64,000 nt of DNA from Leucoraja ocellata. Its lineage: Eukaryota. This document shows, piece after piece, positions 5,591-19,025 of this stretch. A program made the translations under genes and the position numbers. The notes under the pieces were generated by a model. That model had not been told where the DNA came from. It searched no databases and was given only the letters and a program-made list of their open reading frames with translations. Every line of letters starts with the position of its first letter. Position 1 is the stretch's first letter. Where the stretch lies: positions 186,001-250,000 of the forward strand of contig JAWMAR010000710.1 in the NCBI GenBank assembly GCA_036785375.1, written 5' to 3'.

Positions 5591-5710
5591 TTAAATCTTT
5601 TTTCAGAGTAAAATTTTTGGAGAAACATGTGCTGAAATCAAAGTCTGCATGAAAGTGAGTACTTTAGCCCAATGACTTTACCATTCATATTCCAACATTC
5701 AGTCTCCTAC

Positions 5711-6049
5711 CTGTAACTGTGATTAGATCAATGGTGACATATTTATTTGATCCTATGTAGCATGTGTAGACTCCAGCATCTGCAAACTGCACGGGGACAA
5801 TCCTCACATGGAAATTCGTGCCATTCACATTTCCCTCTGTGGTTTTCAGTCGATTCCCAAAGTTACTCATGTCGACATGGATCGGCTCAGACCTGTGAGA
5901 AGAATCTATTTCCTTCTCTTGATTTTGGACACGTTGTGATCTCCAAGTCCATTTGGTTTCATTGAGCTCAAGAGAAGCTTTACAAATCAGGTCGAGTTCA
6001 CTGTGATCTGTGACGGAACGATAAACTGTGTACATCTTGTTATGTAAAT
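5711..6049 (-). CDS. Gene A exon D3: V-set Ig domain
   Basis: Acceptor CTCTCTTGCAG| and donor |GTAGGA; 339 bp, phase 1-1, no stop. LDLIC...WTW...FGNRL...DAGVYTC with the two Cys 74 residues apart. Confidence 0.9.
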
Positions 6050-6849
6050 CTGCAAGAGAGGAACAGGGAACAAAGAATTAGATTTCCACAGATAGTGAGA
6101 TACAGATAATCTGAATTTCCACAGGGACAAACCCCCAGCTCTGGAATGTCAGCTGGGAGGGCCGCACTGAGACAGGAAAGTCGGCTGGGAGCTGCAATAC
6201 GCTGGCTGCCGGCCCAGGTGCCCATTGTTCAAACGCCGGGCTGTGCACCAAAGTCCATCTTCCCCAGACACACACCCAGCAAAGTGATGCCAGTGGACTG
6301 GAGATAATAAACAATCTGTTACCCAGTCTCAGAAATCGATTACAGTGAAATATTTATCACACATTGAACTGGGCAACAGGTTGTTACACAAGGTGAGTCA
6401 TACAGTGAGAGGGACATGAAGGAACATTATTTGGAAGATGAGAGTGACACTGAATGTCAGACACTAAGATCACTGGAGTGAGTGACAAACAACACCCAAC
6501 CCAAGGAAATGGCTCAGCCAACAACTGAATTTTGGTGCAGCTGTACATTATCTTGAATAAGTTAATATTCCCATCTACTCTGGACAGAAGACAACTTGCT
6601 TCTCTCCATTGATTGATGTTATCCCCTTTGATTCATGCAGGTGAATTGAAATTAATCCCTTGGTTCTCCTGTGTAGCTCCATCAATTTTAATGCCACCGT
6701 TTTATATTTACACTGTGTCCCAGGTTAAAGGCAATGCCAATATCCTGCAGTGAAAGCCCACGGTGAAGTCAGAGCTCACTGTACAATATGTGCAACAGTT
6801 TGATATCAGGAACTATTTACTACCTGCTGCAAGGCAGCTTTGGACTCAC

Positions 6850-7122
6850 CCTGATCCACTTCAACATTGGTGTCTCCAGTGAGAACAATGGAGCCATTTT
6901 CCTGCACTTCCCATGTGTACAGATTGGGATTTCCTGCTCCAACATGTTGGATCATCAGATAGACGATGTTATTCAGATGGATCTGATCAGTGTTGTTCCT
7001 CCTGTTCTGCTGAGCTGAGCCTCTTGGTTTCCAGTGAAGACTGACGGTATCTGGGAGTCTGGAGATGGTACAGCTGAGGGTGATGTCACTGCCCATTACT
7101 GGCCTCGGTGAGTCTGCCTCAA
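6850..7122 (-). CDS. Gene A exon D2: C2-like Ig domain (F-strand Cys replaced by Trp)
   Basis: Acceptor ATTTCCACAG| and donor |GTGAGT; 273 bp, phase 1-1, no stop. GSDITLSC...LHW...YLMIQHV...LYTW; paralogous to the exons at 29361 and 42800. Confidence 0.88.
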
Positions 7123-8138
7123 CTGTGGAAATAGACACATGATGTGTGGTTCAGTCCAGCTTTCTGAACGACTGCGGGCAGAATTGTCTCTTTCCTGCAA
7201 ACAGACAGTCGGCCGAATGTTGAGCATCCGTGCTCAGTGATGTCATCCCCACTTCCTGGTAGTGACCACCTGCCCCCCTTGTCCCCCTCGTCTCCCATAT
7301 CTACCCGCTGCTCCCGAACAACATCATCCAAAGACATTGAGCAGCTTCCACAGGTAGGTTCCCAGCACCAGCTCTGCCTCCCGCCACCTCACGCAACCCT
7401 CCCATGGTCTCTGTGCTGTCGATGACTTGGCTAACAATGGCCTGGTGAAGCAAGGTCATTGCTGCTGACCTTGAGGAAGCTGCTACAGAGGTTGGGCCCT
7501 CTCTGTGGCCAGGACTTCACTTTCCCAGTGTCAGGGCCAGTTTATGGGAATATCTGTCCTAAACATGGCCATCATATTACCAGAGCTGACATTCATATTA
7601 AACCCTCCCCAGTGACGGAAAATGAAGAAGGGAAAACTGAAAGTTAATGTTAATATTTTAACAATTTACAGAATCCAATATGTTGGAACACAGATCTTAG
7701 ATATTGATGTAGCTAAAATATAAGCATTTTTGCCAACATGCTCCAAGAGCCACACTTCATCTTTGGTCTGGGCAAGTTGTTACCTTCTATTGTCAATATG
7801 GAACTTCCATCTACATAAGGATTATTACCGTCAGGCATCATTGTTTTCCGTTTCCTCTCTGTGTAGAGAGTGTGTCACAGTCGGCCAGAACCACATCATC
7901 AACAAATTACTTAGCTACAGTGACTTGATCTTATCCCACCTGCCACAGGTCTTCTCTCTATCAGGAGAAGTTCCCTGGTTTCACCACATTTCAATGCTGC
8001 GTGGGCTGCCGTCATCATCTAATTTCCCAGAAATCTCATCAAATAACTGACCTAATTCCAACAATCTGTCACAAATTTGTGGAAAAGATTTACAGAAAAA
8101 CACATTTGTCTACCCTTTCTGTTCCTTGTCCGACATAC

Positions 8139-8477
8139 CTTTGATCACAAATAGTTCCCACTGTCTCAGGATTTTCCCACTGGGCTGTGCTTGATTCCAG
8201 GTGAAGAGCCCTGCAAGTTCAAAGATGGGTTTCCTGATCCTCAGATTAAGGGTACCCCAGTCCATATGCATACTCTGGGAAATGCCTGGTATTTGATTGT
8301 ACTCATCACTCCATTTTACGCCCCACTGCTGATCTTCTCTGTGAAAAGTAGCCAATTGCTTTGTGGTTTGTTGCCCTGAGTGTGGCCTCCATTCCAAGTC
8401 AATGGGGCCATTTCCAGGACTGTCTGGTCCTTTCAACACATAGTTGCCTTCCTGGTGGAAAAAGTAAATAGTAGTTC
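8139..8477 (-). CDS. Gene A exon D1: cysteine-less V-like Ig domain
   Basis: Acceptor TTTTCTGGCAG| and donor |GTATGT; 339 bp, phase 1-1, no stop. GTTIYF..YVLKGP..LEWRPHSG..LNLRIRKPIFELAGLFTW..ILRQWELFVIK; homologous to the exons at 22991 and 51428. Confidence 0.85.
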
Positions 8478-11400
8478 CTGCCAGAAAAGCAAAATAGTGT
8501 TTTAATATCGGACGATAACTTCTCAGTCTGATAGTAAGATTAAACGAGAACTTACCAGTTTGAAGTTTGATCTGTATTTTATGAGGAGTTACGATGAGGG
8601 ATTACGTGAAGAAGCCCGCTTCCACGCATGCGTGTCATACTTCAAAGCAGCGGTGTGAGGTCACAGGAACCTATAATGATCTAACATAGTAAGATTACCA
8701 AAGAGATACCAGTTTTTGATATGATCATAAGAGGGTGGGAGCGGAGGGCACGTAATCCCTCATCGTAACTCCTCATAAAATACAGATCAAACTTCAAACT
8801 GGTAAGTTCTCGTTTAATCTTACTATTTTACTTCGGAGTCACGTGAGTGACTACGTGAAGATTTCAAAGCTCTGTGACCTCATGCCGTGGAACGAGTCCA
8901 TGCTTCACAAACTGCCTTGGGTATTGGGAGAGAGCATCATTAGTAATTTTAAACACAATTATACAAAGAGTTGTGTGGTATAACGAAAAAATATATAACA
9001 TTTTTTAAAAATTTGAGAATCATAGCCCTGTAACCTTTCGGGCAAATTATTTTGTTGAACATAAAATGTTTTCTTAATACAATGATATAGTTTGAGTCAT
9101 GACCCTTTCATGCGGTTTCTTGTAAGAGATAAACAACTCCATTCTCTGACCTCGAATGTTCTTAGTATATTCTATGTATTGTTAGATGTGTCTTGCTATA
9201 CAGTCGTTTGCCATATGGGTGTACCATAAATTCAAACACTTGACCCGAGGAACCCGATCTGTTTTCTTTTATTAAATCCTGTATGACAACACCAGTTTCT
9301 CGGTGAGATGATCAGGGAGTCCAGGCTCAGTTTGCTTAATGGCTGGACTTGTTGTGCGGTAAATAACACCATGAGCATAACCATCTTCCTGGACTGTTAC
9401 TGAAGTGACAACGCTGTTATGAGCTACAGGCTCCTCAGCATGTTGAGAAACGACACCCACGTCCCAGATTTCGGAGTACCTGGTTTTCTTACCAGGGGTG
9501 CGTTTCCACCGCGTGCCGCTCCGTTCCTTGTGATAGGTAATTGGAGAGCGCACTTGTGGCACTATTGAAGGCAATGTAGCTCCATCGATTATCCTAATGG
9601 AGGCTTGTAAAAATTCCAATACGGCCAGAATGTTCTTGGCCTTTTGGTCGAGATTGTTGTCCAAGCAGTATATGCCCCATTTCTTGATGTGTCCAAGGTA
9701 CTGCTTCCGTGTTGACAGTCTTAGTGCAGATGAGATGAGATTCATCGTCCTGTCTGACAGTGTAGTGGGTCTGTTAGACTCTACAAATCAATAAATCCAT
9801 AGTGTTATGGCATGGATGACTGCCTCCAGTCACTGGATAAATCAATAATTTTTTGGCAATGTTCATAGGGAACATGGTTCTAACACCATCCCCTGTAAGA
9901 CTGAAATACCATGATTGAGAAGGTCAGTCGGGTACTCTGAAAATTCCAGATGCCGAGTGTGGTTGAATTATCCCTAGTACCCCAATGATGGGTCCGAACG
10001 GGGGAAAACCTCACCCTATGGCTTATTTACATAACAATGCCAAGCTGGTTTACGAATTTTTGTACATAATAATGGGGCTAATGATTGCCCCTTATGTAAG
10101 CTCTATATTGCCAAAGTTCCTCTATTGAGTCAATGCCTGCCATATAGAAACCCACAACTGACACCAAGTCTATATCAATAATAAGAGCATCCATCTTAAA
10201 ATGAATATCTAAAACAAATGTGTTTAGGGTTAAAATCAATGATAATCCTGCAACCCTACTCTATCTTATATTTAATAATATGTTCAATCCCATCTTTTGT
10301 GTACAATTCTTGTAGCACCATGTGGGTTTTAGATTGTTTGGTTTATGTAAGGACAAAATGCCCTTCTGGTGTATGATGTACTGTGGTTAATGGGATGAGA
10401 AAAACCCTATCAGATAACCCTGAATACTGCTGAGATTATATGAATCTGTAGTGATTATATACCATACATAACTGTAGTGTTGCAACCACCCCTACCATCG
10501 TAGGTCCCTATTTTAACAGAAGAAAACCCCACCCACCTACCTCCCTGGTTACCGGTGGTTTTGTTATTTCCTTGGTTTTTTGAAAATAAGGTTCTGGTTT
10601 AATATTTCTTGTTCGGGGTTGTGTGGGAGGTTGAGGCTTCCGCATCTTCCAGGGTGGCCGCCCTGGCCATACCCTTAAACGGATCCTGCGGGTTATATTG
10701 ATTTCTGACACTGCTACTGGTATGAGCCACATTTTTTATGGCCTTGCCTGTGGATGGTATCATGCTCCAAAATAGGCCCTTGCGCTGGCCTTGATGAGCC
10801 CCAGTGTCTTGGCTTAGTCCACACACGGTTTTTATTTGCAAATGGTAGCATTTTTGGGGTCCTAGTGCTGGCTGAATGGCCGCCTTCCACGTGTAGTTCA
10901 GGTTATATTGCATATTATTAAACAGATCTAGTGCGTCTTGATGGTCTTTGGTTACCTACGTTTAGTCCAGGGTGCGGGTGTATGCTATGATGCCTTCCGT
11001 CAATCCCTTGAAGGTTCTCTGGATCTTGAGGTCCTGGTTCCTGATGTTCGTCCCCATATGCTGCCAAATGCATTGGATTACACTGGGCACCTGTAATGCC
11101 TCACCGTTGCCAGGTGGCAGATGTCTGGCCAGTGTTTGTAAATTTTTCTTGTTGGCGTTTGTGGCCAGACATATAGTAATACTATTGCCATCCTGGATCC
11201 AAGTCTACCCATGTTTGACTTGGCTAAAGTAATCGGCCACCATGTCCAGCAGAGTCCCTGCTGTGTTAGGATCATGGGACGCTGTATTACCAGGCTCTGG
11301 CCCATCAGGGTCCTGCCTACTCTTTTTTATAGAGTTAGAGATCTCTAGGGTCCCGCACGGGGTACCCATGTGGGGCTTAACTGCTGCCCACTTGTCTTTT

Positions 11401-11984
11401 GTTCTGCGGACCCCTCTTGCAGGTCAGCCCAGAACTGACCCACAGTGCTCCCCTCTGATGGGGTAGAAACATTGTGCAGCCCTCAAAGAGGTACTGCTGT
11501 GGTTTTATCACGTTGGAGCAAGGCTCCACACACCGCTACTTCCCGCTCCAGCCCTCTCGGGCACTGGTTGCCGGCGGTTTTATGCAAAGTCGGACCCTTC
11601 CGAGTCCACTACCTTGTTTTATTTGTGTCTAGCCTACCGCTCGGTCACATGGATCTGGCCGGTGCGGGGCCGACATCGGGCACAGCTGATCCCACTACGG
11701 TTGATCCAAGTGCCGCTGGCTGCTGCTGGCTGCCCGCTGTTCCATGGTCCTCCTTCTCCAGTGTTGTCCTTCCTTCCGTGGAGTGGATATGGCCGGTGTG
11801 GAGGATAACTGGCACAGCTGCTTCCATCTATTCCTTTAACCTGGCTTGAACGCTCTCAGCACTCCTGGCTGCTCCTTTATCTTAGACCCCTGGGACCCAC
11901 CCCCGTACTGACGGTACTGGTCCCTTATGGTCGTTGCAGCCGGTCAACCCCACTCTAATGCCCTCAATTCTGGGCACTCCTACT

Positions 11985-12042
11985 TATATGGTCCTTAGAT
12001 AAGGGACATATAAGACATTAAAACTGATGATAACAGCTACTA
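11985..12042 (-). pseudogene. Second, more diverged U2 fragment (nt ~34-90) in tandem with the first
   Basis: Minus strand TAGTAGCTGTTATCATCAGTTTTAATGTCTTATATGTCCCTTATCTAAGGACCATATA aligns to U2 nt 34-90 with several substitutions. Confidence 0.85.
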
Positions 12043-12054
12043 TAGTTTTTATAT

Positions 12055-12148
12055 AATATATATAGTCCCTAGATAAGGGGTGTATCAGATATTAAACTGA
12101 TAAGAACAGATACTACACTTGATCTTAGCCAAAAAGCCGAGAAGCGAT
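12055..12148 (-). ncRNA. RNU2: U2 snRNA 5' portion (nt 1 to ~90), 3'-truncated before the Sm site, inside the DIRS element
   Basis: Minus strand reads ATCGCTTCTCGGCTTTTTGGCTAAGATCAAGTGTAGTATCTGTTCTTATCAGTTTAATATCTGATAC: 66/67 identical to vertebrate U2 nt 1-67 as I recall it, followed by a stem IIb-like CCCT-TATCT-AGGG. No Sm site or 3' stems. Confidence 0.95.
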
Positions 12149-12359
12149 TATTGTAACTAAAACCCCGCTGGGACCGATCCTGGTACTCACATACTGGTCC
12201 CTTGTAGTAGATTGCAGCCAGTCAACTGCAAAGTCCTTTGCTGCCGAGAAATGAACTTTCTCACCGTGCTGGAGCGAAGTTGGGCACAGGTGTTTTTCCC
12301 CCTCCGGGAATCGATGTGCCCATGCTGCTCCTGCCGTTGCCAGCTCCTCACGAAGTGCC

Positions 12360-12470
12360 AGCTGCCACTGCTGCTGTCTGTGCTACTGCAAACTGCCGGC
12401 TGCCACTGCTGCTGCCGCTGCCGCTGCTGCTGCCGGCTGCCACTGCTGCTGCCGCTGCTGCTGCCGCTCC
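12360..12470. repeat. Imperfect (CTG/CCG)n trinucleotide repeat within the DIRS 5' region
   Basis: gctgccactgctgctgccgctgccgctgctgctgcc...; gives the Q/S-rich ORF 12187-12519 (-). Confidence 0.85.
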
Positions 12471-13629
12471 TCCGCGGTTCTCCCGCCGGCCTTCTGCACC
12501 TTACATGGACCTGGTCCATGTCTGCACCTAGAAAGGTAAGTTGAAGGAAACGCAGGGTCTCTTACCTGCTGTTCCCGACTTTCCTTCTCCCGCCGGTGAC
12601 CGTCGTTCCCTGTGTCGGGTTCGAGCCGCTTGGACCGACCCCGGTGTTCACGGGCCTGGTCCTTCGCGGCAGTTCCGCAGCCGGTAACCCCGGCTGTTCC
12701 TATAGATCCCCTGGACCCTGGTGCTTACCTTGTGAACAAGGTTTTCAGCCCGAACGTCCCGTTCCGACTCCATAAGTGCCGCTGCACTCGCTGAGCGTTT
12801 CGAGCCCCGGTACCGCTGGTCCGAGCTGTCTGTCCCGCAGCCTCTGTGCTGGCTGCTAGCGACTGGTCCCAAGCCAGTCTCGTTTGAGACTGGCATAGGG
12901 ACCTTTTTTACTTTGCTTCCCGCCCGGCCGAGAGGTGAATTTTGCCGGTGCGGGAGCAAAGTCGGGCTCAGGTTGTTCCCCTCCAGGGAAACTCGTGCTG
13001 TTGCTGCTGCTGGCTGCTCGCCCTCCACGGGTCTCCCCGCCAGCTTTCCGCAGCCTCCTAAAAGTAAGTAGTAAAAAGGAACGCAGAGTCTCTTACCTGC
13101 TGTTCCCGACTTTCAAATCTCCCGCTTGGGGAACGCCGTTCCCCCTGTGTGACTCGTTGCAATGCGTGTAGCGATATGACACGCATGCGTGGAAGCGGGC
13201 TTCTTCACGTAGTCACTCACGTGACTCCGAAGTAAAATCTATGTCGTACTGAATACTGTGAAATTGTTTTCTTTAAAAAGGTTGTTAGTTATAGTTTATA
13301 GAATGATAGAATTTTATAACAGTGAAACAGACCCTCTAACCCAGCCCAGCGATGTCGACCAGTGTACTCTTCCATATTTGTCCCATTTGTTTGGTCAATT
13401 GTCCGCAATGCCAATGTGATTCAAGTGTGATTTGCCCAGCAGTTTTAAATACAACTATATTTTACAACAAGCAGTGAAGTACATCCATAGAACAGCTTAC
13501 CATTGCATCACTAATGTAACAATACATCACAGTTAAGCTAGACGTTTTATAATTTGATAAGCACATGAGATTGGCATCAGAGGAGAGCAGAAATGGTACA
13601 CAGTTACCACAGGTAATGATGTTTGGTTT

Positions 13630-16199: not shown

Positions 16200-18781
16200 T
16201 ACATAGAAACATAGAAACATAGAAATTAGGTGCTGGAGTTGGCCATTCGGCCCTTGAGCCTGCACCGCCATTCAATATGATCATGGCTGATCATCCAACT
16301 AAGTATCCCGTACCTGCCTTCTCTCCATACCCCCTGATCCCCTTAGCCACAAGGGCCACATCTAACTCCCTCTTAAATATAGCCAATGAACTGGCCTCAA
16401 CTACACTCTGTGGCAGAGAGTTCCAGAGATTCACAACTCTCTGTGTGAAAAAAGTTCTTCTCATCTCGGTTTTAAAGGATTTCCCCGTTATCCTTAAGCT
16501 GTGACCCCTTGTCCTGGACTTCCCTAACATCGGGAACAATCTTCCTGCATCTAGCCTGTCCAACCCCTTAAGAATTTTGTAAGTTTCTATAAGATCCCCT
16601 CTCAATCTCCTAAATTCTAGAGAGTATAAACCAAGTCTATCCAGTCTTTCTTCATAAGACAGTCCTGACATCCCAGGAATCAGTCTGGTGAACCGTCTCT
16701 GCACTCCCTCTATGGCAATAATGTCTTTCCTCAGATTTGGAGACCAAAACTGTACGCAATACTCCAGGCGTGGTCTCTCCAAGACCCTGTACAACTGCAG
16801 TAGAACCTCCCTGCTCCTATACTCAAATCCTTTTGCAATGAAAGCTACCATACCATTTGCTTTCTTTACTGCCTGCTGCACCTGCATGCCTACCTTCAAT
16901 GACTGGTGTACCATGACACCCAGGTCTCGCTGCATCTCCCCCTTTAACAATCGGCCACCATTTAGATAATAGTCCGCTTTCCCGTTTTTGCCACCAAAAT
17001 GGAAAACCTCACATTTATCCACATTATACTGCATCTGCCAAACATTTGCCCACTCACCCAGCCTATCCAAGTCACCTTGCAGTCTCCTAGCGTCCTCCTC
17101 ATAGCTAACACTGCCCCCCAGCTTAGTGTCATCCGCAAACTTGGAGATATTGCCTTCAATTCCCTCATCCAGATCATTAATATATATTGTAAATAGCTGG
17201 GGTCCCAGCACTGAGCCTTGCGGTACCCCACTAGTCACTGCCTACCATTGTGAAAAGGACCCGTTTACTCCTACTCTTTGCTTCCTGTTTGCCAGCCAGT
17301 TCTCTATCCACATCAATACTGAACCCCCAATGCCTTGTGCCTTAAGTTTGTATACTAATCTCTTATGTGGGATCTTGTCGAAAGCCTTCTGGAAGTCCAG
17401 ATACACCACATCCACAGGTTCTCCCCTATCCATGCTAATAGTTACATCCTCGAAAAATTCTATAAGATTCGTCAGACATGATTTACCTTTCGTAAATCCA
17501 TTCTGACTTTGTCCAATGATTTCACCACTTTCCAAATGTGCTGCTATCCCATCTTTAATAACTGACTCTAGCAGTTTCCCCACTACCGATGTTAGACTAA
17601 CTGGTCTGTAATTCCCCATTTTCTCTCTCCCTCCCTTCTTAAAAGGTGGGGTTACGTTTTCTACCCGCCAATCTTCAGGAACTACTCCAGAATCTAAAGA
17701 GTTTTGAAAGATTATTACTAATGCATCCACTATTTCTGGAGCTACTTCCTTAAGTACTCTGGGATGCAGCCTATCTGGCCCTGGGGATTTATCGGCCTTT
17801 AATCCATTCAATTTACCCAATACCACTTCCCGGCTAACCTGGATTTCACTCAATTCCTCCAACTCCTTTGACAAGCGGTCCCCTGCTATTTCCGGCAAAT
17901 TATTTAAGTCTTCCATAGTGAAGACGGAACCAAAGTAGTTATTCAATTGGTCCGCCATATCCTTGTTCCCCATGATCAACTCACCTGTTTCTGACTGCAA
18001 GGGACCTACATTTGTTTTAACTAATCTCTTTCTTTTCACATATCTATAAAACATTTTACAGTCAGCTTTTATGTTCCCTGCCAGTTTTCTTTCATAATCT
18101 ATTTTCCCTTTCCTAATTAAGCCCTTTGTCCTCCTTTGTTGGTCTTTGAATTTCTCCCAGTCCTCCCGTATGCTGCTTTTTCTGGCTAATTTGTACGCAT
18201 CATCCTTCGCTTTGATACTATCCCTGATTTCCCTTGTTATCCATGGATGTACTACCTTCCCTGATTTATTCTTTTGCCAAACTGGTATGAACAATTTTTG
18301 TAGTTCATCCATGCAGTCTTTAAATGTCTTCCATTGCATATCCACCGTCAACCCTTTTAGAATTAATTGCCTGTCAATCTTGGCCAATTCACGTCTCATA
18401 CCCTCAAAGTTACCTTTCTTTAAGTTCAGAACCATTGTTTCTGAATTAACAATGTCACTCTCCATCCTAATGAAGAACTCAACCATATTATGGTCACTCT
18501 TGCCCAAGGGGGCACGTACAACAAGATTGCTAACTAACCCTTCCTCATTACTCAATACCCAGTCTAAAATAGCCTGCTCTCTCGTTGGTTCCTCTACATG
18601 TTGATTTAGATAACTGTCCCGCATACATTCCAAGAAATTCTCTTCCTCAGCACCCCTGCCAATTTGATTCACCCAATCTATATGTAGATTGAAGTCACCC
18701 ATTATAACTGTTTTGCCTTTGTCGCACGCATTTCTAATTTCCTGTTTGATATCATCTCCAACTTCACTACTACTGTTAGTG
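16200..18781 (-). mobile_element. CR1 LINE, 5'-truncated, ORF2 nearly intact (single TAG at 17242-17244)
   Basis: ORFs 17242-18702 and 16291-17238 are in the same frame, split by one stop. Motifs GVPQGSVLGP and FADDTK; (TTTCTATG)n tail at 16200-16224. Confidence 0.96.
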
Positions 18782-19025
18782 TTGTAGTGTTAGGGTTGTG
18801 TTCATTAACATGCTGGCGATTCCATCATACCCATTGGGACAAACTGAACCATTTCCAGAGAGGATTGGGGACACTGTGTGGGAGCACCTTCAACAAAAGG
18901 ATTGTAGAACATCAAGAAGGCAACTCACCATCACCTTTTCCAAGGCAGTTAGCGATGGATGATAATATATATCTGCCACAATTTATCCCAATCACCGACA
19001 ATGACACTTGAGCTGCTCTGTCTGT

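Follow-up and report, generated by a model that had tools for sequence, protein, structure and literature searches.

The U2 snRNA sequence carried by a retrotransposon in the window, by which we mean the whole 64,000-nucleotide stretch of Leucoraja ocellata DNA analysed here, is a real, inherited part of a multi-copy DIRS lineage. Comparison of copies shows that its site was originally empty, received a single U2 piece (nt 1-90) that then decayed, and was filled a second time with U2 nt 1-96, after which the double cassette came to occupy hundreds of loci. Across the 3.44 Gb assembly that contains the window we found 13 such events in DIRS elements, ten of U2 and one each of U4, U5 and U6, with eight of the U2 events lying outside the family that carries the window cassette. 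Judged from these sequence comparisons, the inserts probably arose by template switching onto co-packaged, 3'-trimmed snRNA and were then carried along by neutral hitch-hiking.

The cassette and its carrier element

The carrier, its parts and the evidence for each are listed below in element order.

8531..13238, minus strand: non-autonomous DIRS1-like (tyrosine-recombinase) retrotransposon, "family A", 4,708 nt (copies with common ends and differing flanks)
13175..13238, minus strand: left inverted terminal repeat, beginning ATT (inverted repeats and copy ends)
12163..12241, minus strand: unit 1 of an old tandem repeat (58/74 identity to unit 2 in the window copy)
12051..12148, minus strand: younger U2 capture, U2 nt 1-96, with four substitutions over nt 1-91 and a small TA expansion at its end (Rfam, comparison with host U2)
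12048..12050, minus strand: three A's, in neither U2 nor the older copy (alignment of copies)
11985..12047, minus strand: remnant of the older U2 capture, nt 29-90, originally nt 1-90 (derived changes and 3' junction common to single-U2 subfamilies)
11887..11963, minus strand: unit 2 of the tandem repeat (repeat comparison)
10857..11153, minus strand: gag remnant, 36% to an intact-looking relative, two stops (tblastn)
9780..10491, minus strand: pol remnants, 26% and 47%, with stops, the middle of pol mostly without match (tblastn)
9062..9775, minus strand: tyrosine recombinase remnant, 31%, four stops (tblastn; the query's family confirmed by Pfam on a 98% relative)
8749..8861, minus strand: internal complementary region (ICR), matching both ends (inverted repeats)
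8531..8639, minus strand: right inverted repeat and right extension (inverted repeats and copy ends)

The only Rfam match in the window is to U2 (12148-12041, minus strand, 103.7 bits), and it lacks model positions 100-185, that is, the Sm site and the 3' stem-loops. The host reference comes from 48 scored genome matches, of which the 12 fetched were all identical. Against it the first piece starts at U2 nt 1, agrees at 66/67 positions over nt 1-67, retains a stem IIb that can fold and ends before the Sm site, which bears out what the first-pass annotation had read from the letters; over nt 1-91 the agreement is 87/91. The cassette runs in sense with the element, its U2 starting 1,091 nt inside, and occupies the spacer between the two tandem-repeat units. 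DIRS sequence lies on both sides, no U2 3' half occurs anywhere in the window, and at 12/12 host U2 loci only the RNA part matches the cassette, with no host promoter or 3' flank around it, in agreement with the earlier statement that there is no recognisable snRNA promoter.

The second piece (12047-11985) corresponds to U2 nt 29-90 at ~86% identity (BLAST core 34-90). Its presence had been noticed correctly, but it starts nearer nt 29 than the nt 34 first given and is joined to the younger piece by three extra A's, possibly the oligo(A) tail of the captured RNA. Nor is it the tandem partial copy that it had been called: duplication of one U2 copy was rejected, as the second piece keeps host letters that are changed in the first and descends from single-U2 subfamilies, which makes it an older capture. 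U2 is indeed better preserved than the DIRS reading frames, as had been claimed, these being 26-47% remnants with stops, and the strong preservation in the window is explained by the second capture being recent.

Comparison of copies set the element ends at 13238 and 8531. The termini (13175-13219 and 8595-8639) form 45-nt arms that are 96% complementary, the ICR at 8749-8861 pairs with both, and a right extension is present, so the earlier placement of the cassette, in sense inside a DIRS element, holds. All 12 family A copies shown have ATT at both ends, unrelated flanks and no target-site duplication, as in DIRS1-like elements; the right end of the window copy reads ATC, not ATT. As described in PMC3266345, DIRS1-like elements have inverted termini, an ICR, a right extension, ATT ends, a gag-pol-recombinase order and no target-site duplication, and family A shares all of these, differing in being coding-dead and in carrying snRNA inserts; the text of that paper nowhere mentions snRNA.

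The order gag, reverse transcriptase, tyrosine recombinase survives in the window element as broken remnants only. Its longest plus-strand frames are 154 and 171 aa, and no Pfam match was obtained in the five frames tried. Three young copies are nevertheless 98-99% identical to it over the whole length, which together with the dead frames implies that the lineage moves without proteins of its own. The terminal 30-mer has 16,126 matches genome-wide (up to two per element), and DIRS elements with the exact family A terminus make up at least about 1% of the genome. Some same-ended relatives keep frames of 453, 693 and 338 aa, and Pfam finds RVT_1 and Phage_integrase on a 98% relative; such same-ended elements with long frames are the likely helpers of family A.

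Within the family the cassette is abundant. The point at which the two U2 pieces meet is matched 673 times in the genome, the window's 5' junction has 178 exact matches (the flank alone 177), and 40/40 scored matches of a 601-nt query span the cassette. Set against 1,349 matches of a family A marker lying 830 nt from the cassette and 42 of an empty-site pattern, the 673 double junctions place U2 carriers at more than half of family A. An exact U2 28-mer has 1,064 matches in the genome; among the first 100 listed, 45 fell in the junction list by list comparison and 55 were fetched, and 96 lie inside DIRS elements, an enrichment when set beside the genome share of about 1%, a lower bound, of elements with the exact family A terminus. 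Of the fetched loci, 43 belong to family A, three other DIRS families account for 8, and 4 lie at the 5' end of Tx1/Keno-like LINEs. The 178 and 673 junction copies bear out the proposals that the cassette is a fixed component of a non-autonomous DIRS family and that the family spreads U2 fragments.

Elsewhere in the window are immunoglobulin-domain exons at 5688-6077, 6809-7150 and 8110-8601 (minus strand), the first two with Pfam V-set/Ig matches; the right end of the DIRS element lies just upstream of the third, putative one, on the same strand. A LINE with endonuclease and reverse transcriptase domains, which we take to be CR1-like, occupies 16291-18789 (minus strand). The 1-kb stretch around the cassette is present (share 0.5 or more) in 14 sequencing runs, which carry the label organism A, the label organism B or no label, and family A may be common to two species.

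History of the U2 site and change in the U2 pieces

Copies used to reconstruct the site were chosen by a marker outside U2, since a U2-based choice biases the conservation test. Among the first 100 marker matches listed, 50 were without the exact U2 28-mer, and 40 of these were fetched. Twelve carry no U2 (one clean empty site, L157, the rest being deletions or truncations), 16 carry a single U2 nt 1-90 at identities from 98% down to 81%, and 12 carry two U2 pieces, four of these lacking U2 nt 1-24 through a shared deletion. The empty-site pattern adds its 42 matches, with the flanks directly joined in 10/10 fetched. The first-pass annotation had named relatives of the family that lack the U2 segment as a result that would speak against its reading, and both sets contain them. 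In the 10 empty-site copies the tandem-repeat units agree at 73-81 of 80-82 positions, compared with 58/74 in the window copy, and this better match marks the empty state as the older one. A tree built on a 1-kb core was set aside, since large indels in some copies and the apparently mosaic make-up of others had distorted it.

Alignment of copies shows that the first capture inserted U2 nt 1-90 without removing element sequence and without duplicating more than 1 nt of it; the empty and filled sites differ by the insert alone, overlapping by at most 1 nt, which upholds the earlier report of no target-site duplication. The decay that followed included the branch-point pairing letters. At the second capture a fresh nt 1-96 plus AAA took the place of old nt 1-28. 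The old remnant shares derived letters with single-copy subfamilies. The fresh piece, which in a sister subfamily agrees with host U2 at 96/96 positions, is without the nt 10 change of most single-copy subfamilies. The empty site itself falls within a variable tandem repeat of ~113 nt (L170-L179, G000:C3752:37096-37347). Loss of one such unit can remove the cassette, and overlapping anchors are seen in L094 (in part), L130, L143, L144 and L156.

It had been suggested that U2 acts in cis on the element RNA, and equally that divergence at the rate of the flanks would speak against this. Alignment and substitution counts agree on the latter: U2 diverges at least as fast as the flanks, and a cis function is not supported. 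Between the window copy and the least-changed single copy, old U2 differs at 12/63 sites, the upstream flank at 15/88 and the downstream flank at 16/146 (alignment distances exclude 12 copies without both anchors, and 16 further copies have no distance values). In a set of 33 double copies, which we grouped into 8 subfamilies, substitutions shared within subfamilies number 12/96 in new U2, 7/62 in old U2 and 131/1627 in the flanks; Fisher tests of the two U2 pieces give p 0.13 and 0.34. The core of the new copy, nt 15-65, has 2/51 changes, below the flanks but not significantly so (p 0.43), and most copies were chosen by exact match there, biasing the count low. An indication of selection from the 96/96 subfamily was dropped after sampling by the marker outside U2. 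Neither piece thus changes more slowly than the flanks among the 33 double copies, nor is U2 retained in all active subfamilies: those that had lost part or all of it still multiplied, including subfamilies whose old U2 is without the branch-point pairing sequence (five copies, 81-83%). The cassette is most likely non-functional. Cassandra TRIMs are likewise non-autonomous retroelements with a built-in housekeeping RNA, 5S rRNA, whose RNA part is reported to be conserved and functional; the U2 of family A decays at the flank rate instead.

snRNA inserts across DIRS families

Further captures were sought with three U2 5'-end patterns that exclude most host genes and double copies (275, 17 and 17 matches, of which 45, 17 and 17 were examined). 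Together with the earlier sets these yield ten U2 events with distinct junctions:

A-old: U2 nt 1-90, sense, family A
A-new: U2 nt 1-96, sense, family A
B: U2 nt 1-93, sense, 37 matches
C: U2 nt 1-95, sense, 3 loci, two of them a segmental duplicate
D: U2 nt 1-185, sense, 4 loci
F: U2 nt 1-91, sense, 3 loci
G: U2 nt 1-186, sense, 4 loci
H: U2 nt 1-181, sense, 1 locus
I: U2 nt 1-174, sense, 1 locus
J: U2 nt 1-90, sense, 2 loci with common flanks

For event B, 28/37 matches have the filled-type junction; 12/12 filled-type copies were filled and 9/9 others empty. Events B and D lie in the same stretch of pol, and H and I occupy the same place in different families, right after element nt 61. These last (L307/L409:1290 and L313/L410:990) arose independently, each is nearly full-length U2, and both sit where the left inverted repeat ends, a place that may mark the 5' end of the element RNA. 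In L307, whose element otherwise looks intact, 3 nt separate the end of the insert from a motif resembling a splice donor.

U5 lies inside family A relatives in 16/23 Rfam matches, through one junction and with empty relatives, so that DIRS-borne U5 copies outnumber true U5 genes among these matches. The copies are full-length, in sense and in U2-less relatives of the window family (L351-L355, L361-L364, L366-L372; L403:2834-2947). They sit directly upstream of a putative CR1/SINE 3' tail, judged by its likeness to the L257 repeat, that is already there in empty copies. U4 was found inside DIRS in 3/12 matches and U6 in 2/30 fetched of 43 matches. Leader inserts in further non-autonomous DIRS families comprise U4 (L395-L397), U2 1-90 (L393-L394) and U6 1-97 (L401-L402). 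U4 in a DIRS family ruled out the idea that only the RNAs of the activated spliceosome (U2/U5/U6) are taken. No U1 was seen beside DIRS at 50 loci (47 of 66 exact matches and 3 weaker ones), and among control RNAs DIRS flanks were found at 0/11 U3, 0/5 Y, 0/5 7SK and 0/7 7SL loci, these being best-scoring family matches, which favour full-length copies.

All 13 events are in sense (one-sided sign test 1.2e-4), and insertion orientation is therefore not independent of the host repeat. Every insert starts at nt 1 of its RNA. The U2 3' ends fall at nt 90-96, just before the Sm site, in six events and at nt 174-186 in four, with 3-5 extra A's in A-new, C, D, G and U5. No element sequence was replaced at A-old and U5, whereas B lost 2 nt, I ~7 nt, G 32 nt, H 71 nt and C ~125 nt. 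For five events (A-old, B, G, H, I) the displaced element sequence opens with A or AT. Wherever an empty or near-empty relative was found, no target-site duplication exceeds 1-2 nt; no close one was found for D, F and J. Sense orientation, bounds at RNA ends, microhomology, local deletion and absence of duplication are the hallmarks of template switching, and all are present here.

Probable template switching, its rivals and its meaning

The starts and ends of the inserts, the replacements and the microhomology suggest two template jumps by a reverse transcriptase. During minus-strand synthesis the DIRS enzyme would leave the element RNA and restart on the free 3' end of a co-packaged snRNA that had been cleaved immediately ahead of the Sm site or had lost only a little of its 3' terminus, and that often bore a few added A's. 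It would copy to the first nucleotide of that RNA and return to the element through 1-2 nt of microhomology, or, in the second capture, through the 5' end of the old U2. Helper elements with the same termini would integrate the cDNA, and the insert would thereafter travel as a neutral passenger. The available text of several papers offers precedents: retroviruses package pre-U2 from the cytoplasm together with ncRNAs, tailed or truncated, that stem from a decay pathway (PMC4378196), their template switching at chance microhomology brings patches of host RNA into the cDNA (PMC4997597), truncated snRNAs without an Sm site go to cytoplasmic P-bodies (PMC7293007), and for DIRS-1 the cDNA accumulates in the cytoplasm and the reverse transcriptase acts in trans (PMC7192593). 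The first-pass annotation had raised a one-off template-switch capture; the switching is likely, but with ten independent U2 events it was no one-off.

Some observations fit template switching less easily. U2 carriers form the majority of family A, an outcome that selection could equally produce, and the same site was refilled after decay; with only 2/51 changes in the new-copy core and 28/37 filled-type junctions in family B (12/12 fetched filled), one could suppose that the U2 5' half benefits the element RNA in cis, by U2 snRNP protein binding, export, packaging or escape from silencing, so that captures are kept and refreshed on decay. We regard this as unlikely, given U2 rates equal to those of the flanks, the loss of the branch-point pairing sequence from the old copy of multiplying subfamilies noted above, inserts at places as unrelated as the leader, the reverse transcriptase and the end of pol, and the capture of U4, U5 and U6 as well; moreover, none of 20 same-ended elements drawn at random from contig 1 carries U2 or any Rfam RNA, and homology to the old copy explains the refilling. 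The short A runs of C, D, G, A-new and U5 (4-5 A's in D and G, D also having an A-rich 5' flank) could equally come from LINE-mediated insertion, and LINE-type retrocopies of U2, U1, 7SL and 7SK do exist in the genome. That ordinary LINE-made retrocopies landed in DIRS copies and were then amplified is nonetheless very unlikely: LINE insertion would have to account for 13/13 sense orientations, the lack of duplications longer than 1-2 nt at sites with a known empty counterpart, and deletions of ~30, ~70 and ~125 nt at G, H and C. The 79 U2 5'-end loci examined, moreover, include only 2 free retrocopies, one of them (L257) with a 13-15 nt target-site duplication, against ten DIRS events in the sets examined, a comparison that favours amplified events, single retrocopies being harder to detect; the other non-DIRS loci are Keno-like elements or interrupted U2 genes.

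The dominance of U2 (10/13) and the absence of U1 from 50 loci are not what plain random co-packaging predicts. With only spliceosomal snRNAs found and the control RNAs empty, donor-like motifs in the leader, one of them 3 nt beyond the end of event H, and a DIRS primer that the consulted part of PMC7192593 states to be unknown, the snRNAs may instead have come from spliceosomes still on DIRS RNA, or U2 may be a regular primer or cofactor of reverse transcription, the inserts being accidents. This is improbable, in that U4 was captured too and the source was hence not solely the activated U2/U5/U6 set, the inserts are 3'-trimmed and A-tailed like decay intermediates rather than intact snRNPs, the insertion sites are scattered, and the controls were searched by best-scoring family matches only. 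The broader idea that U2 is a regularly recruited part of the DIRS reverse-transcription complex, whether as primer, template-jump splint or leftover spliceosome, with the inserts as its fossil trace, seems to us rather unlikely; if true, DIRS genomes would record how cDNA synthesis starts and finishes.

Template switching onto packaged snRNA resembles what the accessible text of PMC4378196 and PMC4997597 describes for retroviruses, with pre-U2, tailed or truncated ncRNAs and patch recombination, and a 7SL-patched recombinant cited. Here a tyrosine-recombinase element acts as carrier, hundreds of copies have inherited the inserts, packaging is deduced from genomic fossils only, and neither 7SL nor Y RNA was found captured in DIRS (0/7 and 0/5 family matches). 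The crocodilian SINEU, in the consulted part of PMC4494074, is like family A in having a U1/U2-derived part in a non-autonomous retroelement, with stepwise addition and template switching proposed; its snRNA, however, is a 5' head tied to non-LTR (Tx1) machinery, and family A, with an internal U2 piece and a DIRS carrier, shows neither a 5'-terminal snRNA nor a non-LTR 3' tail. U6/L1 chimeric retrogenes likewise join an snRNA in sense to a retroelement during reverse transcription, but are terminal, single, dead copies where the DIRS inserts are internal, with double junctions, and still mobile (PMC4476161, available part). Keno (Tx1 clade) and Utopia also place U2 5' fragments beside a retroelement, though by inserting into U2 genes (PMC4494074, PMC4640811, as excerpted), whereas here U2 RNA lies inside the element, with element on both sides and no U2 gene flank.

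A Keno-like Tx1 LINE of this genome has U2 nt 1-50/55 at its 5' end with degenerate repeats of U2 nt 38-52, and occurs in true U2 genes and dispersed (L076, L090, L096, L100, L208-L211, L277-L279, L286-L296, L309). Its 5' end is preceded by U1 nt 1-56 in many copies on small contigs (L413-L428, L329, L350), or by a U2/U1 (L265) or U5/U2 (L096) chimera, additions that resemble SINEU heads. Some U2 genes that have their promoter are broken at nt 31-34 by insertions of other kinds, at least two in number (L297, L299-L305), which we take to be possibly Utopia- or Dada-like. Our search of titles and abstract openings returned no report of snRNA inserts in DIRS, and Repbase may already list such elements.

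Most U2-like matches on the large contigs of this genome are transposon passengers, and they will inflate counts in snRNA annotation, in mapping by U2 FISH and in the assignment of small-RNA reads. The replication of DIRS elements, and their particles in particular, have received little study. Thirteen snRNA captures, with one site seen in three successive states, form a dated series that likely records a copying slip of the reverse transcriptase rather than useful cargo. The series provides indirect evidence that the DIRS enzyme operates close to precursors or breakdown forms of host snRNAs and, like its retroviral counterparts, changes templates.
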